Source: Octopus vulgaris
Taxonomy: Eukaryota
Direction of reading: 5' to 3'
DNA length: 64,000 nucleotides
Assembly: GCA_951406725.2 (NCBI GenBank)
Contig: OX597816.1
Location: forward strand, 132,804,001 to 132,868,000
The notes beneath the pieces were generated by a model that had not been told where the DNA came from, searched no databases, and worked only from the letters and a program-made list of their open reading frames with translations. Both the position numbers and the translations under genes were made by a program. Shown here one piece after another: positions 31,504 through 63,053 of this stretch. Position 1 is the first letter of the stretch. Each line of letters begins with the position of its first letter.

Positions 31504-31612
31504 CATTTCCTACAATTGTTTCACTTCACACCCAATTTAAATTACAAAACATATATAATAATATAAGTTTGCATTTTGAGTATCTTGAGTGGAAAATCTT
31601 CAGGACAAAATG
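31504..31612 (-). ncRNA. Degenerate type I hammerhead ribozyme motif
   Basis: Minus: cattttgtc CTGAAGA TTTTCCACTCAA..TTGGGTGTGAAGT GAAAC AATT GTA ggaaatg. Core intact, palindromic ACAATTGT, stems I and II imperfect. Confidence 0.6.
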
Positions 31613-31715
31613 GACATTACAGAGTTTACATTTTGATCAATTGAAATTCTCCAACAGACTAAGCTGATGAAAGCATGTTTATTGTGTGTGTGTGTGTGTG
31701 TGCATGCATTAATAG

Positions 31716-31774
<59 letters not shown>

Positions 31775-32512
31775 ATAATAATAATGAATTAAAGTATATA
31801 AGAATAAAAATAAAGGATAAAAAAAGAATAAATAATGAAAATAATGAAATATTAATAATAAAAAATAATTAAAATAAAATAAAAATGAAATACAAGTTTT
31901 ATTATAAACATAGATGTCTATGGTCCATTTTGATTTATGTGTGAGCATATGTTCAAGTGTTTATATGTGTACTTGTATGTATATATACGTATGTTTACTG
32001 CCTAAGATAATTTATGTGTACGAATGTGTGTATGTGTGTCGGCATAATGTTATTGAATGCAAGTATGGATGTCATCGTTTATGCATGAGTGTGTGTGTGT
32101 TTATAGATCCTTATTACTCAAGTTGCTTTATTAGTGTGTAATTATGCATGTATATTAGTAAAAGGTTATCGAATAGTTCTATAACTATATATGAATTTAT
32201 AGGTATGGATATTCATAGCCCATTTCAGTTTATGCTTGATTGTTTATGTGTGTATATAGATGTTTACTATGCATGTTTATTCATGTGTGTGTAAGTGTGT
32301 ATGCATGTTAGTAACATGTTATGAAGTCAAAACAGTTTGTTAATATACATATACATTCCCTTATATGCTTATAGTCAATCATAAAAGGCGATCATAATTA
32401 TTATATGAAACAGTAAGATAATTAGTAAAGTAATTATATATATATATATATATATATGTGTGTATATATATATATACACACACATATGTATATGTATATA
32501 TATATATGTGTG

Positions 32513-32544
<32 letters not shown>

Positions 32545-35112
32545 TGTGTGTTTGTGTGTATATATATATACACACACATATATACACATGTATGTGTATG
32601 GATGCATGTATGTAAAGATATATATATATATATATGTATATATATGTATATAAAATGTTTGTATGTATATATATGTGGCATGTAAGTTTGCATGAATGGT
32701 ATGAATGTGAGGATGGATGCAGCATTTTCAAGATATCTATATATAGAAAAAAAATTACAAAAAATGCAAAAAAGCAATGAAGCATTTCTGGAGGCATACT
32801 TCCCTTATTTCAGACAAATAAAACTGGTAAGGTGTACTACTGTATTTGGAGAAGTCTCAAAATATATTTGAAACTATAATTAAGCTTCTCTGTTTTTTAT
32901 CTTTTGTCATAAACTTTCATCATACCATTAGATGATTATCATTTTTTTCTTTGATGCCACATAGAATCAAAAACAAACAAACAAAAAACAGGTGCAAACT
33001 GAACTAATTTAAGAATGTTCAATGAATAATTTATAAACGTAGCATTGTTTCAGCTGACTGGTTTCACAAATATTTTTATTCACATTAATTACATCATTGT
33101 CTTTGATTTCTTTTTATAGAATACATTGTGTAGAGCATGAAGATTAATGAATATCAATAATTGTTTTTTTTTTCCCTGGATTAGTGGAAATAATAAATAT
33201 TTGCGATACTGTATAAGTCATTTTTGGATTACTTAGTGGATCAGATATTTTATTGATTACCAAATGTTTGTAACTATTTTATGGATCCCTGGATCAAATC
33301 ACATTCAAAGGAAAGAGTACATTAATTACTTTCTGGATTACTGAGACCGGTGTTCTTTGAATTACTGAACAGCTGATATATTATAAATTATGATGCAATG
33401 AAATGATTTCTAATATTGTTGAAGTGCGGCCCCAGTGGCCCCAGTTATTAAGGGAATGTCAAATGATTTATTGCTTGTGAAATATTTATCATGTTATCCC
33501 TCACACAATTCCAAGGTATGGTTTGGGGATTTCAGATTGAAATTTTCTGACTGAAAATTATTATGGTTGGCTTTAGATAAATTGAACCTGTAATTAATTG
33601 ATTTTGAAACATTTACCTACATACACAACAGAAGAAATTATAAATATATTTGACTTCTCTTGCAAATTATAGTCAAATGACCATAATTTTAAATTTAATT
33701 TTCTAATAACTGATTAAATGATTAAATGTTATGAAATTTTATTCTCCATAAAGGCATCAAGTTTATTTTTCAGTTTGTACTTAAGGTTTTTGCAAACTCC
33801 TGATTAATAACTGATTTCAAAAGGAAATATTTAATAATGTCTATAATAATGAATAAAATGACAGTTGCCTTTGCTGTAATATGGCAACACAAAATTATCT
33901 CTTGATTTTTGTATGAAAAACCAACATTTGCATGTAATTTTTATATAATCAAATTATTGAAAAATATATCTAAATAAAAGTTGTCTAAAGCAGAATCAAG
34001 AAACAAACAAACAAGAAAATAAAACAAATTAAGTAAATAAATTATAATTTACTTTTTTTTTTATTAGTCTGTAAAATAATTTCATGATAGTTTTAATCTT
34101 TGAAATGATTTTATCTTGTAGCTTAGCCCCCAAGGCAACCTTGATTCAGAAACATTTTATGAAAGATATTTTAGCCATAACAACCCTTCTTTTTAACAGA
34201 TAAAAGGCATAAGAGTTATATAGTCTAATTGTAACCTTCTATTTATAAGATGATAGTGTGGTATGGGGACGGGGTGCGTTTTGGCTGCTATTTCTAAAGG
34301 CACCCATTTTATCTTTCTGTGCTAAGACAAGATAACAAGCTGTATTGAACTTCATAAGTTATTTAAACATTCATAAACTGAGAAACAATAAATTTCTCTA
34401 ATTAACTGTGAAATAACTCAACAACTTTTATTAATATTTCATTTTTTTCTGAGACAATTTAAACTATTTCTATTTTCTTAAATGGACTTGGAATTTAATG
34501 GAAAAGAAAATTAATGATTTAATACTTGCATTGAATCAAACTGAAATTATAATTGATAAAGCATTGATATGAATAATCAGTGATTGTCACAAGCAATCAA
34601 AGTAGTGTTTTTAGCAGTTCAACCCTGTTCTTCTGTTAGAAGGTGAAGGTCAAACAGAGTACTTCAGCAAACTGCTGCTGTAAGAATATAACTGCAAATG
34701 AATTGTATATGGATCATAACAAGCTATAAATTTAGGACCTACAATTAACCCTACACTCCATGCAGTTTGAAATAAAAGAGATTCAACTAAAAAAAATAAA
34801 AGAATATTAAATGAAATATCTTTTATATTTGAAAGAGTAATGCAGTTTCCAAAATATAAAATGGTAGAGTCCTATGTGAGGGTGGAAGAATGGTATTACA
34901 GCTTCTCATTTATTTCTGTCTCATCTTTTATCTCAAAAGAAATGTAATACCATAGTAAATATCATTGTGGAATCAAAGCAGACAAAAATTGTGAATATAG
35001 TAAGAAACAAAAGTGACAATTTCACCCAATAATTTATTGTAAACAGAATGTCTCAATGTAAACATATGTCAACATATGTGCATAGAGTTGTACATGTATA
35101 CACAGGCATATA

Positions 35113-35182
<70 letters not shown>

Positions 35183-35293
35183 TATATTAATGTATAAGTG
35201 TATATATGTACAATGTGTATATGTATGTATGTGCATATATATATGTATGTATATATATTTGTATATACATTTATATATATATTTGTAAATATA

Positions 35294-35335
<42 letters not shown>

Positions 35336-35406
35336 TACATACTTACATACATACATTAATATATATATATATATATTTATTTATATATATATGAATATAA
35401 ATACAA

Positions 35407-35441
<35 letters not shown>

Positions 35442-35867
35442 TACATATGTATGTTTTATTTGGTGAGAATGAAAGTAATTTGGGTCAAAGAGACAAGGTA
35501 ACAGTCAACATGTACTGAAATGTATTGCTTTATTATTCTTAAGCACTTTTCTTGCACTTTATTTTCTAGTATGTTTAATTCTTTCCTACAACCTAGATTA
35601 AATAGAGGTTCAAAGACAATTGGACCTTTTTATTATTTTTATCATTGTTTATATTTTAATTTTTTTATTTTTACTTTCATTTGTCTATTTTTTTATCGAT
35701 TTATTTTTTAGCTATATATTTTGTATTTTGATTATAAGTATATCTTGTCTCTCACTGAACCCATGGTTTTAGTTCTGTCTGAACTGCTGAAATAATATAT
35801 CACTCTAAGTATACAGTATGAAACTGAGTGAAATACTGAGAGTATCTAATGAGGAACTTATTTAAGT

Positions 35868-35975
35868 AATCATCTGAGGACGTGCATTCAATGCCTGAGA
35901 TATAAGATAATGACTATGCAACATCTCTCCTATGAACAACAGATGCAAGAATGTGTTGAAACAATTGTTGTGGTT
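35868..35975 (+). ncRNA. Type I hammerhead ribozyme motif
   Basis: AATCAT CTGAGGA CGTGCATTC..GAATGTGTT GAAAC AATT GTT GTGGTT. Stem I 6 bp (two G:U), stem II 8 of 9 paired, GUU site. Confidence 0.7.
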
Positions 35976-36764
35976 TTTAAAGAATGTCAGTAATTCAATT
36001 TTCTATCATTTGTCTCTCTCTCACTCTCTCTCTCTATATGTATATAGTATAGTATATGTATACACACACTGATATGTAAGACATATATAACCATCCAGAA
36101 AGAAATATACTGGATGAAAACTAAAATATGTTGGTACGCATGAAAGGATAAACAATAAATTTATGTTTAATTTTCTTTCTCTTTAGCTGAAAAATTCCAT
36201 TTCATTGAATAATATGTCTCTTTTATTAGATCAGTACTTGCATAATTTAATTGCTTAAAAAAAAAAAGAACTGATTAAAATAGATATGGACCTAAAGGCA
36301 GATTTATAATGTAATTTTAAAAATATGACATTTCAGAAATTGTGTTGCACTATCATTAATATTTATATCTACATTAAATGGAGAAATTAGTATTAAGTAA
36401 AAATAATGTTTTCCAAAATTGAATTTTTTAAATATATGTGTGTGTGCATGAGTATATATATGTTTTATTAAATACACCGCAATGTTCAACTTGGTTCTTT
36501 TTCTATTTTAGATTTTTTAAATATTCTAATTGGCTTTTTACAGTTGTTTTGGGACAATGGAGTTCATAAAATTATATTCAATGTTTGTAGGCTTTCACCT
36601 GTGAATTTAGGAATGCTACTGTTTCAAACCACCTATAGAAAACCATTAAGAAAATAGGAAAATAATCTAAAATAAAGAATAAATCATGAACATAGTTGTG
36701 CATTTAATGAAAGCTGCATAAAAGAAAAGCTGTACCCCACATATATGAATGTATGTATATGTAT

Positions 36765-36814
36765 ATAGTGATTCTTTCTAGCAATGGCTTTGCTCATATA
36801 CAAGAAAGCGGCTA

Positions 36815-36854
<40 letters not shown>

Positions 36855-36906
36855 CTTAGCTGCCTTCTCATATATGAGCAAAGCTATTGCTAGAAAGAAT
36901 CACTAT
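36765..36906. repeat. ~55-bp inverted arms around a (TA)n core; single arm copy at ~31227-31275
   Basis: ATAGTGATTCTTTCTAGCAATGGCTTTGCTCATATACAAGAAAGCGGCTAAG and CTTAGCTGCCTTCTCATATATGAGCAAAGCTATTGCTAGAAAGAATCACTAT. Confidence 0.9.
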
Positions 36907-38456
36907 GTATATATACATACACACACACACACATATATATATATATACACACATACATACATACATACATACATACATACATACATACATACATACATAC
37001 ATACGTTCGTACATACATACATATATACATACATATATATATACACACACACATAAACACACACAAACACACACACACATTTTTATGTTGCTTAACTTTG
37101 ATGATCATATGAGAACTGGTGTATTCAAATATGTGTGTGTATAAATATATATATAAACATGCACATATATATACATTTGCATACACACATATGCACTCAC
37201 ACATATATACATATGTGTGTGCGAGTGTATAATATGAAAAAATTAAGGTAAATATAATAAGATTTAAAAAAAACAATTCAATGCTAATTTGGGGAAAGAA
37301 CTGACTCAGTTTCTTTTGTAGCCACCACTACTAAAATCCTATTTCTTTGAAACAAGAAATATATGAAATGGGAAATATGACAATAAATATTTTCCAAAGA
37401 GAATGGCATTTACAAGATTGCTTTTGAATAAACTGAAATTTCACTGTCTGTAGCCTTAATGTAGAAATATATTTTCATATAGTTTTGTCATTGATTTCAT
37501 GAATCTTCTAGAGAATTATTTTGAAATACTGGCTGTAAATTTCTACATGTAATACCAGGACTACAAAAATGTAGAGGATATGGAAGCCCTGAGATAATAA
37601 GATGAGAGTAAACAAAATTTTATTGTTAATTTTATAACTATTTCAAACTTTCATACTGAATTTTTAATAAGAGATACAACGATCAGCTTCTTTATGTTTT
37701 ACAAACTCAATGATTTCTAATATGAAATACAAGGTCCAAAGTTATTGGCAGTGGGGGCATAGTCACTCAAATTGATATCAGTGATTAATTAATACTTACT
37801 TCAATCCTGGATGATTAAAAGTCAGCCTTGGTATGATTTTTAACTCAGAAATTGTTATAGGGATATAAATAAATACCAGAAAGAATTTTAGCTGTAGCTC
37901 TACAAAGTCTGCCAATAAAACCCTTTTGACTTAAAATCCTTTCAGAGATTTTAGACTTAAAAGATAAGAAACAGTCAGAAAAATAAATAAATAGATAAAA
38001 TAAAATAAAATAAATAAATATCTGAAATGTCAGAAGATATTTTAGAAGAAAATATCCTGATTCATAAATATTGGTCCTTAGTTTAATTTAATATTTTATG
38101 TTTAGTGTCTGAAAATACATTATGATAACAAAAATCACATGCCTTGTTTTTATTTGAAACATCCAACAGAAATCCAGTAAAACAATTATTGATATATTTA
38201 TTATTTAAATGTAGGACGAACCAAAGGTTTAGTTTTATGACAGTATGGTCATAAAAATCTGGAAAAAAACCCCCCAAAAGTTGAATGAATGATAAAACAA
38301 TAAAAAATAGACCTTTTTGTATTTTCAGTTATATATATGTATAAAAGAAAATAAACTATTAGATAATATACTTTATTAAAGGATAAAAGAAACCAAAAAA
38401 AGGGAACTGTTATAAAAAAATATTACTTTTAAATAAATTGTGTGAATTTGGTCCGA

Positions 38457-39536
38457 TATTGCTTGAAGAGAAAAAAGAAAAAAACACATTATTGCTTTTG
38501 TTGATATGCTTTAATATTTGTCAAGATTGATATTATTTTTGTGATAGACTTCAATAGATATGTCCTTTTATAATGTTTGGTCAGAAAATGAAACGAAATA
38601 AATAAATAATAGAGAAATGAAAAAATAAATTGATATTGCTTTCCAAACAAAATTGTTAAAAAATGTATTTTATGCTTTCTTGCTAAATGTATCAATAATA
38701 AGAATGTTATTGCTTATTTGAATAGTTTTCATTGAATAATTGACAGAATCTGATAAATATGTCAACTCAATGTAAATCAGGGAAGGAATTTATTGCTTTT
38801 TTTTGGTAGGGAATAAAACAGTACTTAAATCATCATGCCAGTAGCCCACCATCACTGGCTGTCAATAAAGAACAGAGACTTATTGCTTTTTTCAAACACT
38901 TTAAAGAGTGTATAAAATTCATAAAGATATTTAAATTATTTATTCCCACATTTATGAGTAGGAAAACGTTATTGCTTTTCAGAAGTCATGGACAAAAAAG
39001 TTATTGCTTTTTGAATACTTTTGTTGTATGAGTAAATTTCATAAATTATACCAAATAGTTATTTCCTATGAATACAAAAAAGTTGTTATTGCTTTTTGAA
39101 TATTTGATTTGTAAATAGTTAAAAAAAATTATTGTAAGTTGTCTTCTTCTTGTATGTTATGAGAAGAAAAAATAACCCATTATTGCTTTTTGAATATTTT
39201 CATTGAATGAATTTGAATTTGGAAGTTTTCATTAACATATAGTGATAAAGTTTATGTAGAATGATAACAGATTTTTGGAAAGTTCGATGGAGGGAAAATT
39301 ATTGCTTTTGAAAAGTTCATTTAAATGAGACAAAAAATTCAAACAAAACAAAACAGAACATATTAATCAATTTCTAAATACATAGAAATAGGATTGGTGA
39401 AAACACTGTGGACAGGAAGACAAGAAAAAATATAGAAATTTATGTGGGATGGTTGATTAAACATCTCAAATAGAATTTATTTTTTCTGATTTCACAAATT
39501 AGTAGCAGATCTGTGTAAAATTGTTAATTATTGCTT
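38457..39536. repeat. Quasi-periodic array of the motif TTATTGCTTTT
   Basis: Exact copies at 38489, 38790, 38880, 38969, 39001, 39086, 39180, 39299; partial copies at 38457, 38634, 38707, 39528. Confidence 0.85.
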
Positions 39537-41830
39537 ATCTGATTTTAAAATTTTCAATTGATTAAGAGTAATTTTTTAAAGAAAACTTTATGTTAACTAA
39601 TCTGAATAGATTCAAAATAGTTTGTTTCATAGGAGCTATTTTTGAGTTTATTGCAAGCAGAGTTTCTTTACTAAAACATGAAATTTGTATAATAAAACTA
39701 TTTATTCCAAAGCTATATGTAGCTCACATTAAGCCCTCTTTGGATTTCTTGTCTCTTTGATCTTTGATTCAAGAATTTTGACATATACATACATACATAT
39801 GTGGACACATATATGTACATATGTATATATGTGCATACACACACATACACACACACATGCACACAAGCACATATATATGGATGTGTGTGTATAAATATTC
39901 TTAGAGATGTGATATGAATTATCATATCAGTTATTAATATAATTGTGTGGTTTTGTCACATTAATAGTAATTTCTTAAAAAAACCTGATGTTAATGACTA
40001 TTTTTCTCTCTAGTAAAACAAATGAACATGAAAGAAAATTTTATTCCACATGGCTAAAAAATACATTGTTTTCGAAATTTAACTGAGATATTTGCTCATT
40101 ATACTGCTTACAGAATACATTTGTTTATCCTTGTCTCATCATGTAGGGGTTGTATTATAAGATATATGATTCAATGCTTTCTTGTCTAAATGGAGTAATG
40201 TATAATATTAACTACTGGCTAATGTTCAGCATTCAAATTGTATTTCAAATTTCTTTTTTTCCATACAATAGCAGTTATAAATTCGGCTCAAAAACTCTTT
40301 AATTCACAATAACATTTAACCCATACTTTACACATGACTCATTGTTTAAAACTCACACCATATCCAATTCATTACAAATTAACATATACTTAAATCTCTT
40401 GTTTAGCAAATAATTATATCATCTAATAATACCTCAAAAACAATTCCAATCTAATATGGTTTACCACTAATGTTACACCATCTGTATCCAACAAATTTTT
40501 GCTTACATAATTTTCATAAATACAGTTTAAAATTTGCATTTGTCAAACACTGTCTGACTTTTGATTGTTTGTGTAATTGCTAATTCTGACACTTGTCTAG
40601 CTAATTGCAATCAATTCATTACATTTGGCTAATCAGTGTTTAATATTTAAACAAACTTACATTTGTCTTTCTGATGTTTGGTCTCCATTTAGTCAGTATA
40701 GATTAACAATCATTAAATTCATTCAACTATTCACCTGCATCTGTTCCTTTTGCTCACTGACATTTATATTATTTGGTCATTCTGATACATTATCCACATT
40801 ATTTAGGGTATAACCAAATTATCCTAGTTCTTAGCTATTAGATAAGTAATTAATATGACACTAACATATACTCAAGTGTTGAGGTTTCAATATATGAAGT
40901 TTTCTCAACATGAAAATTACTGTAATCAACATCAAAATTTTAAACATTTTTTTCATTTGGAATAAAAATATTTTGAAATAAAAAACATTTTTTTCCCAAC
41001 ATTTTTTGTATTTGCATTTGTTCTATGAGATATTTAATAAAGGTTGTAATGATAATTAAATTTGATGAATGTTACAATAACTAAAATTTGCAGACAACTG
41101 ACCTTTGACATGTGGTTTTATCAATTTAGATAGCTACAAAAAAAATCCAACAAGGAACAAATAACAAAACAACTGCCATAATTTTTGGAGGGTGAAGGGG
41201 GCAGACTACTTTAAATTTCATCATATCAGAAGGAAAGTTGAATAATAACAAATGAGATAATCTGTCAATACTATTGAGGTACTTGCTAGAGATTCAATGA
41301 GTTCCATACCAAATTCTAAGATGTCAGCTTTTCTTATTTTATCAGTTGTTAATTATTTTGGTGTTAAATATAAAAAGTGACACAGATGAAATATGACAAT
41401 AATGATAATGATGACGATGATGATGATGATGATGATGATGGTGATGATGAAAGGTTGAAGGAAGGTGCTGATTATGTTTATTATCATGATGATAATAATT
41501 ATTACCAGCATCACCACCATCATCATTGTTAAGCTGAATTAACTTCATACTATAAAATATTTTAAATGCCTAGTTAAACATATGTATTTATTTTAATAAA
41601 TTATTAAAGATAATGCCGCAAATTTGAGAGGAGGATTTTTTAATGAATAATATGGCTGCACTTTAGTTTATCTTATCTCAACAGGCCATCTGGCACTTGC
41701 AAAACCTATTACAATTGTATATGCATAGAAAACAGACAAGGAGGAAAAAAGGCAAAATTTATTAATGATAATTGAGAAAGCCAGGAATATGCATCAGGAT
41801 TTTCATAGATATTTCCTTAAATGTTATGGG

Positions 41831-41870
<40 letters not shown>

Positions 41871-42047
41871 TTTTACTTGTTTCAATCATTTGACTGTGGC
41901 CATGCTGAGGCACCGCTTTTAGTCAAGCAAATTGACCTCAGGACTTATTCTTTGACTGCCATGTTTCACTAAATTGGAATACAAAGTGATTATGAAACTA
42001 ATATGTATTTGAATGTGACAGAATAATCCCTTGCCAGAGTTCCCCTC

Positions 42048-42083
<36 letters not shown>

Positions 42084-49156: not shown

Positions 49157-49190
<34 letters not shown>

Positions 49191-49336
49191 AAAAGCAATA
49201 AAGATTCAAGTTAATTTAAATGAAATTACTTGAATATGGTACCTAACTTAGATGCACCAAAAAAAACTATACTGATTTAACAATACAGTAATGTGGGGTG
49301 ATTATAAGCGAGAATGAAGCAACAAGAATGGATAGG

Positions 49337-49427
49337 TTTTAGTACAATCGTTTCATACAAGGACAGGTTTTATTAAAAGTTGCAAAAATTACAGCATATA
49401 AACGTGTCCCGTACTCATCAGCTAAAA
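49337..49427 (-). ncRNA. Type I hammerhead ribozyme (mirror copy)
   Basis: Exact reverse complement of 49816-49906. Confidence 0.82.
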
Positions 49428-49815
49428 TACATGTGAGTTCTCTAGACATCCTAGTGGTTGAGGCTATACTCATGAAGTAATGTAGATAATTAAGTAACAT
49501 AAACAGATTTCAAAAGTTCATTAAAGTTCTTTAAAGATGATGTACAGTCTTATCACAGAATTTTAAAAAAGTCTTAATAGCATCACAGAGAAGGTGACCT
49601 AATCCATAGTGCACATATGAATTCATATGTGCACTATGGATTAGGTCACCTTCTCTGTGATGCTATTAAGACTTTTTTAAAATTCTGTGATAAGACTGTA
49701 CATCATCTTTAAAGAACTTTAATGAACTTTTGAAATCTGTTTATGTTACTTAATTATCTACATTACTTCATGAGTATAGCCTCAACCACTAGGATGTCTA
49801 GAGAACTCACATGTA

Positions 49816-49906
49816 TTTTAGCTGATGAGTACGGGACACGTTTATATGCTGTAATTTTTGCAACTTTTAATAAAACCTGTCCTTGTATGAAACGATTGTA
49901 CTAAAA
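49816..49906 (+). ncRNA. Type I hammerhead ribozyme, Penelope-type
   Basis: TTTTAG CTGATGA GTACGGGACA [39 nt] TGTCCTTGTAT GAA AC GATT GT A CTAAAA. Perfect 6-bp stem I, ~10-bp stem II, intact core, predicted cut after A49900. Confidence 0.82.
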
Positions 49907-49936
49907 ACCTATCCATTCTTGTTGCTTCATTCTCGC

Positions 49937-50423: not shown

Positions 50424-50487
<64 letters not shown>

Positions 50488-50545: not shown

Positions 50546-50578
<33 letters not shown>

Positions 50579-50596
50579 CACACATGCATATGTACG

Positions 50597-50630
<34 letters not shown>

Positions 50631-51524: not shown

Positions 51525-52154
51525 TTAACCATTTGATCCAAGAGTAGGATCTGATGTTGTTCCAATGTATCCATAGTTAACATGCTCTTTAACACCCAGA
51601 TCTTCTTGTGATATCTTCAGTGCTGGGTTAATTTTACCATTCATTTCTAGTGTTGGTGTGATTGCTGTCAGTTCATTCGCTGGTTCTCTCATGGCGAGGG
51701 CAATAACTTCATCTGGTATGTTGACAATGCACATGAAAACGTCATAGCGCCGTGGTAGATGGGCATTCTCAAAGAGGTATTTGAATACGTACGAAACACC
51801 CACTATTGTTCCAAGAGAAAGAAACATGGCTAAGGTTTTGAATGGAAACATTTGAAGATGTTCATCCTCATCATAGAAAGGATAAAAAATGATGGGTTCA
51901 ATAAAAAGTGTGGGTTCCCCACCTGAAAGGCGCATGAATATGCCAACTATATAGCCAGCTAACGATCCATAGGTGTTTGCCCACTCTAAATACACAACAG
52001 TCACAAGTTGGGGGAACAATATCACGTAGACAAAATCGGAGCAAAGATACCAAAGATCATAGACCGATGTCACCTTTAATGCCATTGCAGTTGCGAGAAC
52101 ACCAACACCAAAAATAGCTACACGCATCACCCAAAGGATTTCTTGATCCGATGC
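51525..52154 (-). CDS. SLC5A7: High-affinity choline transporter 1, terminal coding exon
   Basis: ttttcag| acceptor. [11 protein letters not shown]...[17 protein letters not shown]...NTYGS...RLSGGEP...FPFKTLAM, then TAA. AATAAA on minus at 51280-51275. Confidence 0.97.
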
Positions 52155-53569
52155 CTGAAAAAGAAAACAAGGACAACATTTACAAAAACCTGATGAATAG
52201 TTATAAAATTTTAGCACAAGATATAACAATTTGCATTAAGAGAGTTAAAAGTAAAACTGTCAGAGGACTGTCACACCTATTTCTACTTCAAACTAAAGAC
52301 CATGTCACTCAGAAATAATTGCTGGAATTTGGAGTAGAAAATTTTGATGGTAAATAAAAAGGTAGCAGGAAGGAAGACAATCAGATTATCTCTAATGGTG
52401 GAATCACAGATATAAGATAGATAAAATTGCATCTTAATGGCTAGAAAAGATATCAGTTTAATTAATTGCTAAATGATACCCACATTGAAGTGCTGTTCAA
52501 AAATCTGGGCTAGTATTGCTTGCTGCTTTGTATAAAAACACTTAAAACTGTTTATTGTTATCCTAAATCGCTTCTAAAGCAAACCTGGAGATCTGTTTTG
52601 GAAGCAATTTAAAATATTTTTATGTATATTTCCTGGATGATAGTCAAAAACTCACTCTATGACATCCCGCAACCTGTAGCTAACATATTCGTTGTTTCTG
52701 CTCCTTATCTTGCAGAAAGTGAATATAAATATATTCCTGGATATGATTCTAGACTGTTACATATAACATTCCTAAAACTGAAACTGACAAGGTTTACCAT
52801 CGATTTAAGAAAGTTTGTATCTAATGAATGTGAAGGCACATGGTTTAGTGATTAGGATATTTGGCTCAATGTCATAAAGTCTTGAGTTCAATTCCTAGCA
52901 GTGCATTGTGTTTTTGACCACGATACTTTATTTCATGCCTACTCAGTTGGCAAAGAGGAATCGTACCTGCAATTCTGTGTCTCACTGAATCTCACTAAGA
53001 ACTACATCAATCCTTTGGAGACAGCCTCATTTGGAGTTTCAATGCCAAGAAGATGGAGCCCTTTTCACAAGCTCTACAGAAGGCATGCACTTATTTTTCA
53101 AGAAAATTATAAAATATAGAGTAATTACTTTACATATATAAAACTATATATATTATTGTAGGAAATTGAATGAACTAATACACTATTCTTTGTCATTTGA
53201 CTTTTTGACTGATAGAGAGGCATTGTCGTCTCCTAAAGGTTATGGGTACACATGTTTGTGAAGTGCTCATCCACTTGCATGCTAATTTCACAAGCAGGCT
53301 GTTTGGTTGATTGAATCAACTGGAACTCGTGTTGTTGTAATTGATGAAGAGCCAGACCATCCAATGGGAAGATGATGCTGATGTATCAGAACTGATATGG
53401 GGCTTTGTGAGGAGAATAAACTTTTTAAAATTCTTTCTGAGAAAAAATTTCTTTCTCCCTTAGAAAGAGTTGCTTGTGAAAAAGTCACTTGTGAAAGAGT
53501 TGCTTATGAATGAGTCACCTGTGAAACATTGATATTATTTTCTCCTCATAACATACAAATTCTCTTTTT

Positions 53570-53965
53570 TTTCTTTTACTTGTTTCAGTCATTTGACTGT
53601 GACCATGCTGGAGCACCACCTTTAGTCGAGCAAATCGACCCCAGGACTTATTCTTTGTAAGCCTAGTACTTATTCTATCGGTCTCTTTTGCCGAACCGCT
53701 AAGTTACAGGGACGTAAACACACCAGCATTGGTTGTCAAGTGATGTTGGGGTGACAAACACAAACACACACAACACACACACACGCATATATATACATAT
53801 ATACGACGGGCTTCTTTCAGTTTCCATCTACCAAATCCACTCACAAGGCTTTGGTTGGCCCAGGGCTATAATAGATGACACTTGCCCAAGATGCCACACA
53901 GTGGGACTGAACCTGGAACCATGTGGTTGGTAAGCAAGCTACTTACTACACAGCCACTCCTACAC
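53570..53965 (-). mobile_element. Well-preserved full-length tRNA-head SINE (3' fragment also at ~41868-41955)
   Basis: Minus: GGAGTGGCTGTGTAGTAAG A-box, GGTTCAGTCCC B-box, internal (TG)n, tail GACTGAAACAAGTAAAAGAA. Confidence 0.85.
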
Positions 53966-54172
53966 CAAATGACCTAAACTTGCGAACTTCTCTTTGTGAA
54001 TTTCACTGGTAAGCATTACTGCCAGTTGGATCAAACTCTAGTGTCTTATGAGATGAAATTGAATCAAGTACATAGACACAAAATAGATTCAAGCATCAAA
54101 TTTTAAGCTTACAAACCATAAACCTTACACACTAAGAGACCTGAAAGAAGTCAATACAAAAAAATTACTTAC

Positions 54173-54384
54173 TTTTTGGCGAAAGATTAGCTTATATACA
54201 TTCCGAGCAAACATGGAAGCTGCTGAAAGAATAGAAGAATCTGCTGAAGACATGACGGCAGCAGATATAGCTCCTAAACCGAAAAATGAAACGAAATCAG
54301 GACACATATACTGCAAACAGAGAGGCAAGACAAGTTTTAAGTTCTTTCCTTCTGGAGCTTGTCCGTATTCAGTCTGGTTCCAGT
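54173..54384 (-). CDS. SLC5A7: Choline transporter internal exon
   Basis: AG/GT bounded, 212 nt. (D)WNQTEYG...[10 protein letters not shown]...[29 protein letters not shown]. Confidence 0.97.
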
Positions 54385-54507
54385 CTGAAAAGAAAGAAAA
54401 CATATTTAAGACATTAAGAACATGATATATACATACATGCATGCATATATAAACACACATACATGTATGCATGCATACATACATATACACATGCACACAT
54501 ACATACA

Positions 54508-54900
54508 TGGTGAATTAATGTGGAACTTACAGCTCTGGTACCCTGACTATGAATTCTCATTTGTACCTATCATCACAGGTGCATTAGGCTATGTACCAAT
54601 AAAATTTGCACAAAACCTAGAAATACCCAGTTTCATGGAAAAAGAGCAAAAAAAAAAAAAATCTGACGCAGATTCTCCTAATCCAATCTGTTAGTGGCAC
54701 AGTGAAGATTTGTAAAACATTCCAAAAATTCTCCATCTGAGATTCTTATGTGAATAGATGCACACACTTGGGTGTATGCATCTATAGTTCAACCAATGCA
54801 CCAACTCAACCGCATATTTACATATTTCTTAACTAAAAGTTTTGTTGTTTTGTTAGTGAATGGCTTGAACTCTCTCTCAAAAAGAACCTAAATTAAACAT
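54508..54900 (+). mobile_element. 3' fragment of an R4/Dong-like non-LTR retrotransposon
   Basis: [30 protein letters not shown], then after a frameshift IQSVSGTVKICKTFQKFSI*. Resembles the C-terminus of restriction-like-endonuclease elements. Flanked by (TACA)n-type repeats. Confidence 0.6.
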
Positions 54901-55124
54901 ACATACACACACATATATGTATTTACGCAACAAAGATTAATAAAGCTATAATAAGTATCATACACCATAAATTCTTGATTCATTGAAATTATTTCTGCTT
55001 AGAGAGAAAGTAAAGCAGTTACCTCCAAATAAGAATAGGAGATTATTTCAAGAATCAAAATATTTCCAAAATTGATATGCCATCAAGGAAAGGCATTCTG
55101 ATTGTCTATTGACATAAAAAAACA

Positions 55125-55169
55125 GCTGTGGACATGTGTTTCTGTCTCAATAGATGTCCTCAGCTCAGC
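55125..55169 (-). ncRNA. Minimal type I hammerhead motif, CpG-decayed
   Basis: Minus: GCTGAG CTGAGGA CATCT attg AGACA GAAAC ACAT GTC CACAGC. Restoring three CA to CG gives a perfect stem II and a palindromic ACGT loop. Confidence 0.7.
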
Positions 55170-56585
55170 AGTTGCACTAACTTATTTCCAACAGATGACA
55201 TACTTATATATATAAGTACAAACATGTAAGAGAAAATAATCAATTAATGTAGGAGAATATATTCCTCCTATCAAGAATTAAGTGCCAGTGTTTAGATGAT
55301 CGTTGACAAAATAGATATAGTTCTGAAAGGGCAAGAAGCTTCAAATCACTTTGATAACAAGGAAGTTTAAATGTCAGAAATTGTCAACAGTTTTAAAAGT
55401 TATTAAATGTAAGCTTCCTTGTTCCCATTCAAATCTTCTTGGATTAGATGCGATATGTATATTCTATACATATCACATAATCAGATTGTTGTTTAGCCCA
55501 TGGCAGCCTTAATCAAGCAGACCTCTGATTAAAAGTCGTTCATGTACAGGCTATCTCATTTCATCTTTTTTACAGATACATCATCATCATCATTTAACGT
55601 CCATCTTCCATGCTAGCATGGGTGGGACAGTTCCGCATGAGCTGGCCAGGTTGAAGCCTGCACCAGACTTCTGTGACTGTTTTGGCAGGATTTTTACAGC
55701 TGGATACACTTCCTAATGCCAACCACTCAGCAGATTGGTCTTAGTGCTTTTTACATAGCACAAGCACAGGCTAGGTGAGTAGTGCTTTTTTCCAGCAGGT
55801 AACACACATATATAAGTACAAATATGTAAGAGAAAACACTCAATTAATGTAGGAGAATACATTCTTCCTATCCATTCTGTCTAAAATGATATTATCTAAT
55901 GTCTTTCATTTTTTAAGATGACAGAGTACAATTTGAACGAGATTTAGCCGCTAATTCTAGTAGATGCTCGCTATGGTCCTGGGTTTCAGGGACTTTCTAA
56001 ATGACTTTTTAGTCTTTCAGACTTTTTAGAGGAGAAAGAAATTCATGTGTTTTTGATGACACTTGTTCAGAACAAAGCCATCCTGAATCAATGAAATGAA
56101 CCCTATCACGTTTATTTATTGACAGCAGCCACAACATACATAGATCAGAATTAGGACCCTAAACCCATGAGGCCCCTGGACAACAGCCCAGTCTGCCTAC
56201 GCCTCAAAACAGACCTGGCTAAGGATTGTCTTGGTTGAAAAGATTTAAAGACATTATGATGTAATATAAAAGATATTATTATATTTGGGGATGGGCATAT
56301 TTTACCAATTAAACATGCATACTACAAATTTGGCTTTCACTTCAGCTTTATTACTATTATTTTAGTTTCTTTTCTGTCACACATTCTGAGGAGACACATG
56401 GCATAGAGAGTTACTGAAGAGGTCACAGAATGTGTGACCATCCCCAAATGTAACAATATCTGTTTCAACACACGATTTTACATCAAGAATTTTGTAAAAA
56501 CAAATACATAAAAGGTATGTTTTATTAGATAACATTAATATATTAAAACGTTCCTTTGTGCAACTTTGTGAAACATTTGTTTTAC

Positions 56586-56715
56586 CTGTGGAGGCAGCAA
56601 CAGCACCAAAGAGGATAGCAGGGAGAGCCATAATGATGCACCCAAAAGCTGCAATATATGACAGCATTTTTGCTTTAAATGCTGACTTGGATGATAGTAC
56701 ACGTTGGAAATAAGC
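56586..56715 (-). CDS. SLC5A7: Choline transporter internal exon
   Basis: AG/GT bounded, 130 nt. [43 protein letters not shown]. Confidence 0.96.
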
Positions 56716-56994
56716 CTGGAAAACAAGAAGGTAAATAGATGTTAATTACAGTAAGTTTCATGAAGAAGGTAAGATTTTTTCATTCAAGTTTTTTTAAAAA
56801 ACATTTATGATCACTTTATCAATAATATAAACAAGATAAAAACTAAGAGAAAGAGAGAGAGAGAGTGAAGGAAAGGCAGAGAATGTATTTTCTTGTTAAA
56901 ATTATAAAAACAAACGGTGTTCAATGATTGACTTCAAGCTAGAATCAAAGCTTGGACAATACTAACTGAGAGAATGTTAAGTCATACTGTTATA

Positions 56995-58204
56995 TTGGGT
57001 TGGCAAGAAAGTAATTTCGATTTTTTAGTGTGAAATAAAAGTCATTTTTCTTCTTACAAAGAATGAACTTTAATCAATTATATATTTTCCATTTTGTTTG
57101 ATGAACTTTCACCATCTTTCTGGCAACTTCTTGATTCCACACACATAGAACTTCTTGTCCTCGTGTGGTTTCAGGTCATCATCATTATTAAAAGTTTTAC
57201 CATTCAAAGAATTTTACAAACTTCGAAATAAATGGTAATCTGGGAGCTATAAGATAGATGTGACATCACTTCCCAACCAAGCTCCAATAATTTTTCATGA
57301 GTTAGCAAAGATGCATGTGATCTAGCATTGTCACGGAGGAACACAATTCCTTCCTGATTTGCCCTGATTTGCCTATTCAGGCTATTTTTCTTTGATTGCT
57401 TCCTCCAGTTTCATTAGTTGTTGACAGTAAATATCTGAATTGATCATTTGGTTCCTTGGAAGCAGTTCAAAATACACAAAACCTTTGTAATCCCACCAAA
57501 ATTGACAGCATGACCTTTTTTGATGCAATTCAGCTTTCAATCTGGTTTGTGCTGGTCCACTACACTTGGAATATGATCGTTTTTGATTGATGTTATTGTA
57601 GACAATCCCTTTTTTTATTACCAGCGATGATGCATTTAAAAAAGAAAGTTGATTTCATTGCATTTGGGATGCATATCACAAATATTGATTCGTGTTAAGT
57701 GAACCTCTTTCAATTTATGTGGAACCCATATATTGACCTTCTTAACGAGTCCAAACATTTTAAGTGATTTTCAGTTGTTGTGTGTGATACATTTAACCTC
57801 TCTGTAATCTCTTACACAGTTATGACAATCAGATTCAATTACAGCTTTGATTCGGTCATCATCAACTTCAGTAGGTTGACCAGAACTTTGGTCATCTTTG
57901 AGTGAAAAATCGCCAGAATGGGATTTTTAAAACTATTTCTGACATGTGTGTTCTGTTAAGCAATCAACACCATAAACTTCACATATCTCTTTGTGAGCCT
58001 CAGCAGCTTTTTTGTCTTTATGGAGATAAAAAAGCAAAATATGGCGAAAATGATCGTTTTTGCATTCCATGTTATAATTAACACTGAAACAAAAATTACA
58101 CACAATATACTTCTAAAGTAGACTAAAAGTAACAGCTATCAAATATCAGAAGGAAAAAAAATCATAACATTGCAGAAAATGAAATTGCTTTCTTGCCAAC
58201 CCAA
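56995..58204 (-). mobile_element. Full-length decayed mariner (1210 bp)
   Basis: TA-flanked TIRs TTGGGTTGGCAAGAAAGTAATTTC / GAAATTGCTTTCTTGCCAACCCAA. Minus-strand WVPHKL, DNARSH, DYHLFRSL. Confidence 0.92.
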
Positions 58205-58417
58205 TATATTATTGAAAATATTTTTGACAAAGTTTGTGGTTTAAGTTTTGCTTGGAGTAAAAACTATTATTGCATCTATTGCCTCATGCTTGCACAGGAA
58301 ACAGCAGAGGAAAAGTATCTATGTTAAATAAAGTACAAGTGGTCAAATATTTTCAGTCATTTGCACTGGTAAAACATGCAGAGAACCATTGGATATCTTT
58401 TTGAAATATAATTGTTT

Positions 58418-58620
58418 GATAAAGCAGTATTATTCACAAATAACTATGATGCGACTGTGTCTGATAAGGTGCTGTTATATTTGACAAAGCACCATCATTC
58501 ACAAATGTCTGATAATGTGCTAGTATTTACAAATATATGATAAAGATGCTCTTATTCACAAATGTCTGTTAAGGTGATATTATTTATAAGTGTCTGGTAA
58601 AAAAATGCTATTATTCAAAA
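58418..58620. repeat. Decayed ~29-30-bp minisatellite (TGTCTGATAAGGTGCT.TTATTCACAAA)
   Basis: About six imperfect units visible. Confidence 0.7.
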
Positions 58621-58691
58621 TTTTATTTTTTTGCAGTGAAAATAAAAAAAATATAAATGTATAATTAAAATGAAAATAGAAGTTATCTTAC

Positions 58692-58844
58692 CTGCCAAGG
58701 AATTCCTCCAAATATCAGTAAGAGATAGCTGTCAGTATAACTGCCAATATATTTGGCATCAACACCTTTAATCCAGTTAGTTGTGGCATTAATTGCAATG
58801 TTGTGAGCTGCTTTATGGGTCATGGCAAAAGGAAGAGAAATCCA
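58692..58844 (-). CDS. SLC5A7: Choline transporter internal exon (missed by the ORF track)
   Basis: AG/GT bounded, 153 nt. WISLPFAMTHKAAHNIAINATTNWIKGVDAKYIGSYTDSYLLLIFGGIPWQ. Confidence 0.96.
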
Positions 58845-60151
58845 CTGTAAAAAAGAGACAAATTTTAATTAGCTATTTCTGTCATCTCTTTAAAAGAAAG
58901 GTCTTGGTGTTAAGTCCTAAACTCTTCTGTATTTTTTTTTTTTAAATATATCTTCCAGATAAGGTGGTGAGCTGGCAGAATCAGTAACATACAAGACAAA
59001 ATCCTTAGAAACATTTAACCTGGCTTTACATTCTAAGTTCAAATTTCACCAAGGTTAGCTTTGACTTTCACCCTTTCAGGGTCGATAAAATAAGAATCAG
59101 TCAATTGCTGGCCTTTTTACCAAAATTTGAAACCACTATATCTTTCAGATAAATCAACAGAAACATCTGTCTAGAAGTTCATGGATACTTGCACAAGAAA
59201 CTGGAATAGATACAGTGAGACATTTCAATCTGAAACCTTAACCATAAACTGATGTATTCTCCAAACAAAGAAGCACACAGCCATATCATACAGAAAACAT
59301 CAGTTCTCATCCGATCATCAAAGTTAAGTATGTTTTTTTTTTGGCTGCTTTTGCAGATTCCTATAATTTTCTGTTGCCATCCAATTCCTCTGCTCAGTAT
59401 CAATGTAAGAAGCACTGTTGGCTCAGTTGGATTCTGCTATTTCTTCACAATCTGCCATGTTGCGATCCAATGACATTGTATCCCTGGCAGGCTGGCCAAA
59501 TGGGTGCTATACCTTGCCAAACAGCAACCCATAACTATGCAGGGCATGGTCATTATTCTGTGAGGTGTTTTCAAAATACCTACATACCCAGTACTTAAAT
59601 GAGTACTTGAGAAACTCAGGTGCTGTAAGTATCTAGTTTGAATTGCTGATTCAATATTATAACTAATTATAATATTATAATACCATTGCTTAGCTTTTGG
59701 TTGCCTTTAGTGGAGTCCACTTTGTTACAGGCATTTGAAGCAAGTTTTATAATAAAGTCTGATAATGACTTCTTCCTTCCTCCAACTATTTAAGAAGCCC
59801 TGAACAGGGCTATTGTTCCTAATCTTCCCACCCTGACTGATCTGTTAAAGAAAATAGTGATACTGTGTGCAATCTCATTGCATCTCAAATTAGAAGATAT
59901 TTCTTCCTTAAAGAGAGGCAGCTTCTGGAATGGAGGATATAATTCAGACTCAAAGGTAGATTCAGCCATTTGAGGAAGAGAGAACAATAAAATGAACATC
60001 GAATTAAATACTGAAATCAACATAATGACTCAAAACCTTTAAAAGCAATCACTGAATTATGGCTCTAGCATGACCATAACCCAGTGAATAAAAACCAAAT
60101 AATGATAAAAGGAATAAACTCAGTAATCAAAAGAATCATATGTTCACTTAC

Positions 60152-60300
60152 CAGGCCCAAAAAGATGAAAAACAGTTGGAGCACATCTGTATAGGCGACT
60201 GAATAGAGTCCACCAAAAAGTGTGTAGAATATGGCAATACAAGCTGAGACAATGATGGATATGTTTGTATCAAGCTCAAGAATTACTGCCAAAGTGGCAC
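60152..60300 (-). CDS. SLC5A7: Choline transporter internal exon
   Basis: AG/GT bounded, 149 nt. (G)[10 protein letters not shown]...[25 protein letters not shown]. Confidence 0.97.
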
Positions 60301-60524
60301 CTGAAGTAAAAAGAAGGAACAAAAATATTATATGTAATGTCTCTAATAACTTAATTCTTCTTTCGTTTTTAAAAAAAAATTTTTATCATTTGATCTTGAA
60401 GGAATAACTAGAAATACATTTCTATTTTACAGATTTATTTACAACATTTGAAATTATGATATATGTTTAGAGTATGGAATATACATTCATGATTGCATAT
60501 ACAATACACTCACATACATGCATT

Positions 60525-60581
<57 letters not shown>

Positions 60582-60666
60582 GAAATTTACAAAAAGCAAA
60601 AGATGAAGACAGGTGTATAAACAACAAACAGGTGTATTAGTTTAACACTCAGGAGGGTGAGAAAGT

Positions 60667-60702
60667 CTTTTATGTTTCAAGCCTATGCTCTTCAACAGAA
60701 AG
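60667..60702 (-). ncRNA. Variant or decayed ultra-minimal hammerhead-like motif within a repeat at ~60579-60750
   Basis: Minus: CTTT CTGTTGA A GAGC atag GCTT GAAAC ATA AAAG. Stems I and II present; core A6 is U; ACAT in place of ACGT. Confidence 0.45.
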
Positions 60703-60834
60703 GAACATGAGGAAATAAACAGAGAAAATAAAAAAAAGGTTTAGTGGCTAGCAATTAATCATGGCAGTTAAGGTAGTTAGACAGGAGAGCTAGGAAGAAG
60801 GGGAGATAATAAAGTATTGGTGATCCCAAAATGA

Positions 60835-61325
60835 AGATGTGTGTGCATGTGTATGTGAGAGTGTGTAAGTGTGAGCATGTGGATAGGGGCTGGTGACTTT
60901 GATATGTGGATGTGTGTGTGTGTGTGCATCTGTAATGTGTGGGTGTGTGGATAATGGTGTGGGTGCTGGAAAGTGATCAGTGCTAGTGTGTGGGGGTGGT
61001 GTGATGTGGTGTTGGGATGTGGGGGTGCGAGGGTGGGGTGTGGGGATGCGAGGGTGAGGTGTAGGGATGTGAGGGTAGGGTATGGGTTTGGATTTGGGGT
61101 GAGAATGTGGAGGTAGGGTGGGGTATGTGGGAGTGGGTTAGGGTTAGGGGTGGGGTGGGATGGAAGGGTATCAATGAAGGGAGAAGGTGGGTGGGACTGA
61201 AGAGAGGAGGTAGATGTCAGGGCAAGAGAGGAGAGGAGAGGTGGGTAGGAGTGAAGAGAGGAAGTAGGTGTGAGATGAAGAGAGGAGAGGAGGGGAGTCA
61301 GATGAAGAGGTGAGGGGAGGGGAGT
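60835..61325. repeat. Strand-asymmetric G-rich low-complexity tract (GT-rich, then GA-rich)
   Basis: Many GGG/GGGG runs and almost no C on the + strand. Confidence 0.9.
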
Positions 61326-61599
61326 TGAGCCCTTGTGGGGCAATGGAATGAAGAGACTTATAATGTGATATTATAAGTTTGATACTGTTCTCATCAAATT
61401 CTGAATTGTTCATTAATTCTGAGAGAAACTTGAAGCTTTTCACAATCTGCTCATATGGGTCCATCCTTGCTTACCTGGATTATCAAGCATTCAGAGACTT
61501 GATTTAGAACTTCTATCCTAAATTTTCCATTCCTTTCAAAGAAGCTCTATCACTTGTTCCATCTGCAAATTTCTTTGTAACAATGTGCTTGGAAACATC

Positions 61600-62589
61600 A
61601 GAATAATCTGAGGTGATATATTCACATAAACCTTTTGCTACTAATTCATAGCGTGAATGAAAAAATTAAGTTGCTTAAGCTTCATTAGTTTTGTTGTAGA
61701 TCCACCACTGTTCACAGGCTCTCTGCATTCCAGTTGACCTGTTCAGTTCAATGAATAAGCTCATCCTTGAAGATCTACACCAGTTCACTAGGGAATTGAC
61801 CCAGAAGATGAGATGTTCTCATGATAGCATTATCACCTGATGAATAAAGTTCAAAAACTCAGTGCATAGGTGCCACATGCTCTGAATAAAAGAGAAAAAC
61901 TCCAGTGTTCCTCTATTGCTACCAGTTTGCTTGCTTGACACCAGGCTACTTGTGGACACAGTATTTATACTACATTATCACTGATGATGATAAATGATAT
62001 TTTTATGTCAATACAATGCAGAGGAATGAATGGCCAAATTCCAAGACAGAGTTGTGTCCAAATAAGACAATGATCAGCATTTGGTGGGAGAGGAAGGAGC
62101 TAATCTCCTATGAAATGCATTACAATCCATGCAGAACTTCATATTCAACAAATACACTGGTTCAATGAGGCAATCCATCAGAAACAACCCAAAAGACAAC
62201 CAGTGTGCTTCTTCAACATGGCAACACTTGCCTCCATGACATTAATTTGATCATGGACACTATTCAAGAGCTCTGTTTGAAAGTCGTATATTCTCCTGAT
62301 AATGGTACCTTCATATTATCATCTGTTTTGGTTGTGCTCCAACAGTATGTGAGACATTTCATTCAATAACAATGTAGAGCAGGAAACGTGACATGATAAA
62401 TTCTTTGAATCAACACCTGGTGATTTCTACCATCAAGGCATTGACAAACTTGTGGAATGTTGGCAAGAAATAATGAATAATGAAGGAGAATATATTTTTG
62501 ACTGATTTCTTAAAATAGTTGATGAAAAATAAGGTTTATAATAAATGAGAAACAAAAAAAAAAGTGAATTAATTTATCTGACAATCCAA
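61600..62589 (+). mobile_element. Decayed mariner; left end not resolved
   Basis: Remnants *VPHAL, ITDDDK*, LLQHGN, YSPD, YHLF, FYHQGIDKLVECWQEIMNNEGEY. Right end TTTATCTGACAATCCAA|TA. Confidence 0.8.
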
Positions 62590-62663
62590 TAAATATTTAT
62601 TTTAATTCATACTTTTTTAAATTAATGTATATATATATATATAAATATAATGATTATACATAC

Positions 62664-62819
62664 CAAGAGCTGAAAGTACTGCAGCTGACCAAAACACTTC
62701 TCCAAGAAGGGCTGGCAAATACAACAAACCACCCATTCGCTCACCATATTTAATCTGGAAAGGGTCTAACATGGTAACGTAACCCTGTGTACGCATTTTT
62801 TCAGCAAAGAAAAGACCAC
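62664..62819 (-). CDS. SLC5A7: Choline transporter internal exon, most 5' in the window (missed by the ORF track)
   Basis: AG/GT bounded, 156 nt. (G)[51 protein letters not shown](G). Confidence 0.97.
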
Positions 62820-62970
62820 CTGAAAAATATGTACATAAATTTATACAAATATATGTTTAGATGATGTACTTGTGCATAATAAACACACATCTGTACACAC
62901 ACACACACGCGCGCGCAACAGCTTTTCTTAGTTCTAATATGAGCAGTCGCCATATTCTCTTCCATATCGG

Positions 62971-63053
62971 CTAACTCTGATGAGCGTAAAGTTATATAAT
63001 CAGATTTTCACCTAACACTCCATTGTATTCTGTACGTGAAATCGATTGGTAAG
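62971..63053 (+). ncRNA. Type I hammerhead ribozyme motif
   Basis: CTAACT CTGATGA GCGTA..TACGT GAA A TCGA T T GGTAAG. Intact core, 5-bp stem II, palindromic AATCGATT, AUU site, stem I 5 of 6 paired. Confidence 0.65.

Follow-up and report, generated by a model that had tools for sequence, protein, structure and literature searches.

The 64,000-nucleotide stretch of Octopus vulgaris DNA analysed here (contig OX597816.1, positions 132,804,001 to 132,868,000 of the forward strand; hereafter, the window) carries seven hammerhead-shaped motifs at six loci. They are likely the 3' ends of 5'-truncated copies from several unrelated families of Penelope-like elements (PLEs), four of these families having a domain II of 54–77 nt; we assign this reading a probability of about two in three. 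Since hammerheads at PLE ends are already known, also in Octopus, the finding consists mostly of ordinary retroelement debris. What is new is the long domain II shared by four families without relation to each other. The copies in the window appear to be mostly dead, that is, solitary, decayed, or locked in a 285-bp hairpin.

Structure and recognition of the hammerhead motifs

All seven motifs described in an earlier sequence-only reading were located where it had placed them. They are listed below with the positions of C3, G12, and the predicted cleavage base, in this order.

31503..31612, minus strand: long-armed type I hammerhead motif (31504 motif), core CUGAAGA, 74-nt domain II; 31603, 31522, 31511
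35862..35981, plus strand: long-armed motif, decayed (35868 motif), core CUGAGGA, 77-nt domain II; 35874, 35958, 35969
49337..49427, minus strand: long-armed motif, left arm of a fold-back (49337 motif), core CUGAUGA, 60-nt domain II; 49421, 49354, 49343
49816..49906, plus strand: mirror copy of the 49337 motif, right arm (49816 motif), domain II with z −2.0; 49822, 49889, 49900
55125..55168, minus strand: decayed short-loop motif (55125 motif), core CUGAGGA, 14-nt domain II; 55163, 55142, 55131
60667..60702, minus strand: decayed minimal hammerhead (60667 motif), variant core CUGUUGA (A6U); 60698, 60678, 60671
62962..63067, plus strand: long-armed motif (62971 motif), core CUGAUGA, 54-nt domain II with an 8-bp helix and a 38-nt loop; 62977, 63038, 63051 or 63047

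The exact type I core, CUGANGA...GAAA...NUH, is present in six of the seven motifs; the 60667 motif carries the A6U change. All five long-armed motifs form stems I, II, and III, none with more than a single mismatch or bulge. For these, the core-and-stem topology proposed earlier holds, but the 55125 and 60667 motifs conform to it only if CpG decay is allowed. Such decay is a reasonable assumption because CpG is depleted in the window (observed/expected ratio of 0.25). Domain II of the 55125 motif does not fold in its present form. The 60667 motif has one unpaired base, a 4-bp stem II with a tetraloop, and a 4-bp stem I. Self-cleavage is predicted at the NUH sites of all seven motifs. These include GUA at 31511, GUU at 35969, GUA at 49343, and GUC at 55131.

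The unusually long loop II claimed for five motifs was confirmed by measurement: 50 nt (31504), 59 nt (35868), 39 nt (49337 and 49816), and 38 nt (62971). The loop of the 31504 motif is closed by a basal helix of about 11 bp with U.U at its base (domain II z −2.1), that of the 35868 motif by a wobble-rich 8-bp helix with C.U at its base (z +1.1), and that of the 49337 motif by a 10-bp helix. The pair at the base of stem II is G.U in the 49337, 49816, and 62971 motifs. At all four long-armed loci, the end-to-end duplex of these 8–11-bp helices is better than expected by chance (p ≤0.05). The loops themselves are A+T-rich (64–84%) and mutually unrelated. Pairing between loop II and the flanks was obtained in one of eight tests (p 0.02) and was not common to the long-armed loci; a shared loop II–flank pseudoknot was, therefore, rejected.

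Stem III is fully self-complementary in five motifs and one CpG decay away from this state in the other two. It reads ACAATTGT in both the 31504 motif, which has a weak stem I, and the 35868 motif; ACGATTGT in the 49337 motif, with a 6-bp stem I; and ACACATGT in the 55125 motif. In the 60667 motif, stem III comprises 4 nt and is a single CpG decay short of a palindrome. The 62971 motif has an extended stem I (p 0.03 versus shuffles) and a stem III of either 10 nt (GUA at 63051) or 6 nt (AUU at 63047). Stem III self-duplexes of 8–10 bp were computed at −5.8 to −7.2 kcal/mol; the monomer forms 2–3 bp. The self-complementarity claimed for stem/loop III thus stands, with two of the quoted sequences corrected. 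Namely, AATCGATT at 62971 takes in the core base A14, the in-register stem being the 6- or 10-nt form given above, and ACGATTGT is not a plain palindrome, being self-complementary only via two G.U pairs.

The descriptors used for chance tests were written after the motifs were in view. They matched the window far more often than dinucleotide-shuffled sequence, the comparison suggested along with the sequence-only reading. The pattern CTGANGA..GAAAC-N4-GTH within 8–90 nt gave five matches; in local dinucleotide shuffles (n = 150), the mean was 0.09. A stem descriptor with a loop II of 30–70 nt gave five matches at four loci versus 0.03 (maximum 1; 60 shuffles), and a scored scan gave five matches at a score of at least 21 versus 0.12 (40 shuffles). 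The 55125 and 60667 motifs matched only with TG/CA standing for CG, a form with 0 matches in 60 shuffles; the 60667 motif additionally required the CUGUUGA core in the descriptor. A strict mismatch-free descriptor retained only the 49337 and 49816 motifs, which indicates that the other long-armed copies are decayed. A weak scored match at 59313 (minus strand) fell inside the null range of the shuffles and was discarded. The Rfam model RF00163 (Hammerhead_1) matched at 49816–49906 only (18.4 bits, cut-off 34; E 0.034 in a 141-nt search). The core and stems were aligned there, but the long loop was scored as an insertion. The other five loci showed no Rfam hammerhead match at E ≤10. Two pattern scans of metagenome contigs gave 0 matches.

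Two further places in the window recall these motifs. A lone CTGATGA at 31664 (plus strand) lies 60 nt upstream of the 31504 motif (minus strand), points away from it, and is cut by (TG)n; it is either a chance occurrence or the remnant of an inverted partner. Positions 1–177 hold a head-to-head inverted pair with arms of 72% identity, approximately 75 nt from (TA)n. It shows CTGATGA at 70 (minus strand) and 108 (plus strand), a second core box in decay, and a domain II hairpin of about 30 nt. This pair matched none of the descriptors used. It is probably a more decayed hammerhead-bearing fold-back from another family.

The fold-back element at 49 kb and its family

The 49337 and 49816 motifs belong to a single insertion.

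49190..49936, no strand assigned: fold-back insertion between (TA)n tracts, member of a many-copy family

Positions 49337–49621 and 49622–49906 are perfect 285-nt mirror arms that meet at 49621/49622 with no spacer. The sequence common to both arms extends to about 315 nt, interrupted by one 1-nt indel, and their outer ends do not coincide: the left arm alone continues into a tail of some 115 nt (from 49190 to approximately 49305) before (TA)n. Since the two motifs arose in one event, the five long-loop motifs represent four independent loci. They lie on opposite strands and, hence, cannot form a dimer in cis. In three of the four runs examined, a loose end at 49611 revealed relatives that continue upstream of the fold-back point, with about 30 letters visible. 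The copy in the window is, therefore, 5'-truncated. Another loose end, at 49214, belongs to one relative that likewise ends in (TA)n. The element thus combines a 5'-truncated copy with a second, inverted copy joined to its 5' end and a tail on one side, all inserted in (TA)n. Such an arrangement is on record for PLE insertions, which prefer microsatellites, lack part of their 5' end, and in many cases carry an inverted copy plus a one-sided tail of 30–40 bp (PMC8557442). The centre of the fold-back (49578–49665) is a short palindrome, and the relatives have a similar A/T palindrome there; this would fit fold-back priming during reverse transcription.

The element is a member of a many-copy family. 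Its left half (49190–49621) was present in 20 of the 24 runs listed, from 10 studies and under three organism labels, at 63–84% of words. Mapping to these 432 nt at 80% likeness yielded 692, 130, 15, and 739 contigs in four runs. Identity was below 95% for 169 of the 692 and 226 of the 739 contigs, which come from two DNA-type runs with two organism labels. The abundance claimed for the ribozyme-bearing families was thereby verified for the family at 49 kb, one of the six loci, to which all figures on abundance and dispersal refer. The fold-back junction, joints, and shared ends were absent from the contigs of the four runs, which show such features unreliably.

The long loop II is the normal form of this family, variable in sequence and nearly constant in length. 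Four of the 32 contig pieces listed (82–90% identity) cross domain II with 1, 1, 2, and 8 gap letters; no joint skips loop II, and a short-loop form did not turn up. Of the 60 variant rows, the 40 shown place three variants inside the 39-nt loop and two at the 52 positions that are paired or belong to the core, with none listed in the core boxes. Both paired-position variants retain pairing: G.U to A-U at 49349 (stem III) and G-C to G.U at 49361 (stem II). One variant turns stem III into the perfect palindrome ACAATTGT, and two loose ends do likewise. A 30-codon open frame at 49620–49712 (plus strand), also present in mirror form, ends about 110 nt upstream of the hammerhead and has no indel listed inside in the variant rows shown for the family. 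Its single phmmer match, a repetitive protein summed over nine stretches, was rejected.

Origin of the motifs and comparison with known elements

Five of the six loci have a microsatellite 38–155 nt 3' of the cleavage site: 80 nt (31504), 55 nt (35868), 155 nt at 49 kb (38 nt on the short arm), 93 nt to (TA)n (60667), and 44 nt (62971). By comparison, 14% of random positions fall within 160 nt of a microsatellite. The described proximity to microsatellites is, thus, real for all loci except that of the 55125 motif. The units between the microsatellites are about 180–600 nt long (about 180 nt for the 62971 unit) and leave no room for an open reading frame. No homology outside the core was revealed among the six loci, either by MAFFT or by pairwise local alignment, in which no pair scored better than shuffles. 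The loci, therefore, represent different or very old families, and the proposal of several distinct families is upheld. Their designation as non-coding is less secure: the short units indeed lack reading frames, but the element at 49 kb is truncated and may be the tail of a coding PLE, since its relatives continue upstream. Direct repeats of any unit, such as pseudo-LTRs and partial or head-to-tail tandems, were absent from the window, and no locus has a same-strand tandem partner there. Dimer cleavage in place is, therefore, unlikely. The copies would be mostly inactive for lack of such a partner, and a transcript across the pair at 49 kb would form the 285-bp hairpin.

In the published view, the PLE hammerheads whose stem III is a short palindrome would act as dimers, with weak cleavage in vitro (PMC4209133; review PMC6765202). 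The minimal hammerheads with a small helix III described from metazoan PLEs (Cervera and de la Peña 2014, PMC4209133) share several traits with those in the window: type I topology, palindromic positions 15–16 plus loop III, predicted dimer cleavage, and mostly solitary, dispersed copies, with several families per genome. Opposite-strand pairs also occur in both, in the published PLEs at a spacing of 100–700 bp (PMC4209133). The unpaired base before stem II of the 60667 motif is another common trait. However, the published forms have a loop II of 3–10 nt on a stem II of 3–7 bp, whereas the loops in the window measure 38–59 nt on helices of 8–11 bp, and no link of the long forms to a reading frame was found.

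Closest in style, if not necessarily in ancestry, appear to be the hammerheads of Hydra-clade PLEs, including Hydra-1_Obim of Octopus bimaculoides (Craig et al. 2021, PMC8557442). As described there, these possess a self-complementary stem III of 8–10 nt, as found here, often with U.U or G.U at the base of stem II. Also, they lie near the 3' end of elements that target (TA)n and leave inverted 5'-truncated copies. Long spacings between the core boxes are on record for two other groups (PMC8557442). PLE-X1 of spike mosses has loops II of about 29 and 35 nt, flagged as deviating. Eight Naiads, two of them from cephalopods (Naiad_Ovul and Naiad_Esco), are labelled 'HHR_half_core', with core halves 35–50 nt apart. 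Both groups resemble the window in their position at PLE 3' ends and their (TA)n targets; they are reported as falling outside the descriptors and, unlike the motifs in the window, are given no full three-stem model. The window motifs bear no resemblance to the 3' ends of Naiad_Obim and Naiad_Ovul. In both of these, CTGTTGA is followed after about 30 nt by a GAAA box, the flanks being complementary, and then by CTGATGA; this CTGTTGA is the same variant first box as in the 60667 motif.

Animal non-LTR retrozymes (PMC7229834; bioRxiv 10.64898/2026.07.22.740005) are likewise short non-coding units that carry type I hammerheads with a weak palindromic helix III. U.U at the base of helix II is known among them (axolotl Amex2), as in the 31504 motif, and solo monomers occur. 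Neither of their defining traits, tandem units of about 300 bp and circular RNAs, was seen here. Recently active Penelope-like families of O. vulgaris number 31 according to a 2026 repeat annotation whose main text makes no mention of ribozymes (PMC13282606). Within the incomplete coverage of our literature survey, no description of long-loop-II hammerheads in cephalopods was found.

The following course of events would account for the motifs as PLE 3' ends. A tandem or read-through transcript of the parent element would hold two hammerhead copies, as may be inferred from the literature, and the 8–10-nt stem III segments of these copies would pair with each other. The dimer would cleave at GUH and so set the end of the RNA to be copied. 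The GIY-YIG nuclease of the element may nick (TA)n or (CA)n tracts, where reverse transcription would begin at the 3' end and usually stop early, leaving stubs of 180–600 nt that keep the hammerhead. The inverted pair at 49 kb may have formed by fold-back priming at the central short palindrome. The long loop II would be a tolerated spacer, since no loop–flank pairing is common to the loci.

A number of findings speak against an origin of the motifs as PLE 3' ends with a long domain II. With regard to structure, the G10.1-C11.1 pair found in published PLE hammerheads (PMC4209133) is absent from all long-armed copies, and loop II is 3–10 nt long in 26 of 26 Hydra-clade rows (PMC8557442). The lowest-energy fold of the isolated motif is not a hammerhead at three of the four long-armed loci and only partly so at 62971; domain II folds better than shuffles at two of the four. 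The published min-HHR descriptor (PMC4209133; loop II 3–10 nt, stem II 3–7 bp, GAAANNUH) has 0 matches in the window. With regard to context, the nearest microsatellite to the 55125 motif lies 4.5 kb downstream, and the one-sided tail at 49 kb, at about 115 nt, exceeds the 30–40 bp described for PLEs, Hydra-clade elements included (PMC8557442). In agreement with the sequence-only reading, no PLE reverse transcriptase or GIY-YIG domain was found by Pfam in 145 of the 158 stop-free frames of at least 55 aa; the 13 frames left out all lie in 16.7–19.8 kb, and low-complexity frames were also dropped. A word-index search produced no candidate for the 30-codon frame upstream of the 49-kb motif. Short words of the window motifs had no match in matching context in the published Naiad, Chlamys, and Hydra consensus files, a weak comparison because the files are line-wrapped. 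Finally, in the variant rows shown for the 49-kb family, the deficit of paired-position changes is non-significant (2 versus 4.8 expected, P 0.12), and the two changes seen are one-sided, with no two-sided covariation on one molecule.

Three other explanations were considered. In the one favoured by the sequence-only reading, the families are non-autonomous and non-coding, retrozyme- or SINE-like, borrowing PLE proteins and possibly passing through small circular RNAs. The shortness of all units in the window and their lack of a reading frame agree with it, as do the description of animal retrozymes as PLE derivatives with many solo monomers (bioRxiv 10.64898/2026.07.22.740005) and the presence of the 49-kb family in many small RNA-type runs. 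The RNA type of these runs is a guess, and the presence of a repeat in RNA libraries tells little about the 49-kb locus. None of the runs listed as containing the stretch is on record as RNA, which provides no evidence on expression. However, a retrozyme is by definition an array of tandem units, each with its own hammerhead (PMC7229834), whereas no head-to-tail unit was found in the window and no go-back joint in the four runs, whose contigs can show presence but not absence. Furthermore, the inverted, 5'-truncated structure with its upstream continuation fits truncated longer elements. We regard this explanation as unlikely.

Alternatively, dead short-loop hammerheads could have gained the long loops later, by insertion or expansion, in which case the loops were never part of a working ribozyme. 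In line with such an origin, the loops are A+T-rich, unrelated, and without common flank pairing, and at two of the four loci shuffled sequence folds at least as well as domain II. This origin is quite improbable given that loop length in the 49-kb family is constant across 10–18% divergence with no short-loop form, that the loops of four unrelated loci fall within a narrow range of lengths, and that the basal helices are long, with a significant end-to-end duplex at all four. Least probable are chance matches in A+T-rich repetitive DNA, with the palindrome as an assembly artefact. The tuning of descriptors after the motifs had been seen, the lack of an Rfam hammerhead match at five of the six loci, and the absence of the fold-back junction from all contigs of the runs examined are in line with them. 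Nevertheless, the shuffles produced 0–0.12 matches per window versus 5–7 observed, variants of the 49-kb family retain the motif, and the arms at 49 kb differ by an indel and end at different points. For the long-armed motifs, the chance reading is already largely refuted.

The motifs point to a blind spot in the published search pattern, as four unrelated loci with a long domain II occur in 64 kb and all seven motifs escape that descriptor. The long-armed loci all lie in the second half of the window (four in 64 kb; Poisson 95% range 1.1–10.2). If the pattern holds genome-wide, cephalopod ribozyme counts are far too low, the claim that some PLE clades lack hammerheads becomes directly testable, and the long-armed motif would serve as a marker for classifying unassigned octopus repeats. 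A broader reading, which we put forward tentatively and with considerable doubt, is that long-armed hammerheads of the dimer type are extremely numerous in octopus genomes yet uncatalogued, spread over several independent Penelope-like lineages (17–160 per Mb if the window is typical). The 40–60-nt loop II would then be maintained in working ribozymes and would be the cause of the scoring of cephalopod and other microsatellite-targeting PLEs as 'half core' or hammerhead-free. If so, PLEs supposed to lack hammerheads would have to be examined again, and loop II could serve in docking or regulation as a module.

Host gene and other features of the window

The window has a G+C content of 31.7% and contains many microsatellites. 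The following coding features were identified.

51528..62820, minus strand: high-affinity choline transporter gene (SLC5A7-like), host gene with six coding exons
17368–20102, minus strand: nearly intact open reading frame (ORF) of a non-LTR retrotransposon in three pieces, with AP endonuclease, reverse transcriptase, and an inserted PHD-like finger

The last exon of the choline transporter gene shares 99% identity with an Octopus bimaculoides protein cluster; codons 1–94 were not found within the window. The 55125 and 60667 motifs lie on the sense strand of host introns, while the 62971 motif lies antisense in a host intron. Both sense-strand motifs are those that need repair to fold, which with n = 3 is a hint only.

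Judged by its domain order, the reverse transcriptase at 17368–20102 is RTE-like in our view. The retrotransposon is accompanied by a 98-bp tandem triplication at 17001–17292. Adjoining a microsatellite inside a host intron, the stretch 54500–54690 (plus strand) has a translation that we take to resemble the C-terminus of an R4/Dong-type endonuclease; it had no Pfam match. The Pfam search of frames also revealed an ELAPOR1-like exon and mariner remnants elsewhere in the window. Rfam produced only microsatellite-like miRNA noise over the whole window, among the 150 of 273 matches listed.

Two repeats occur close to hammerhead motifs. A 172-nt inverted repeat with (TA)n at its centre is located at 36750–36921, and a related copy at 31228–31314 sits 190 nt beyond the 31504 motif; they form a small MITE-like or fold-back family. 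Just upstream of the 55125 motif, a 92-nt direct duplication (55181–55272 and 55785–55872; 85% identity) surrounds a SINE-like insertion.

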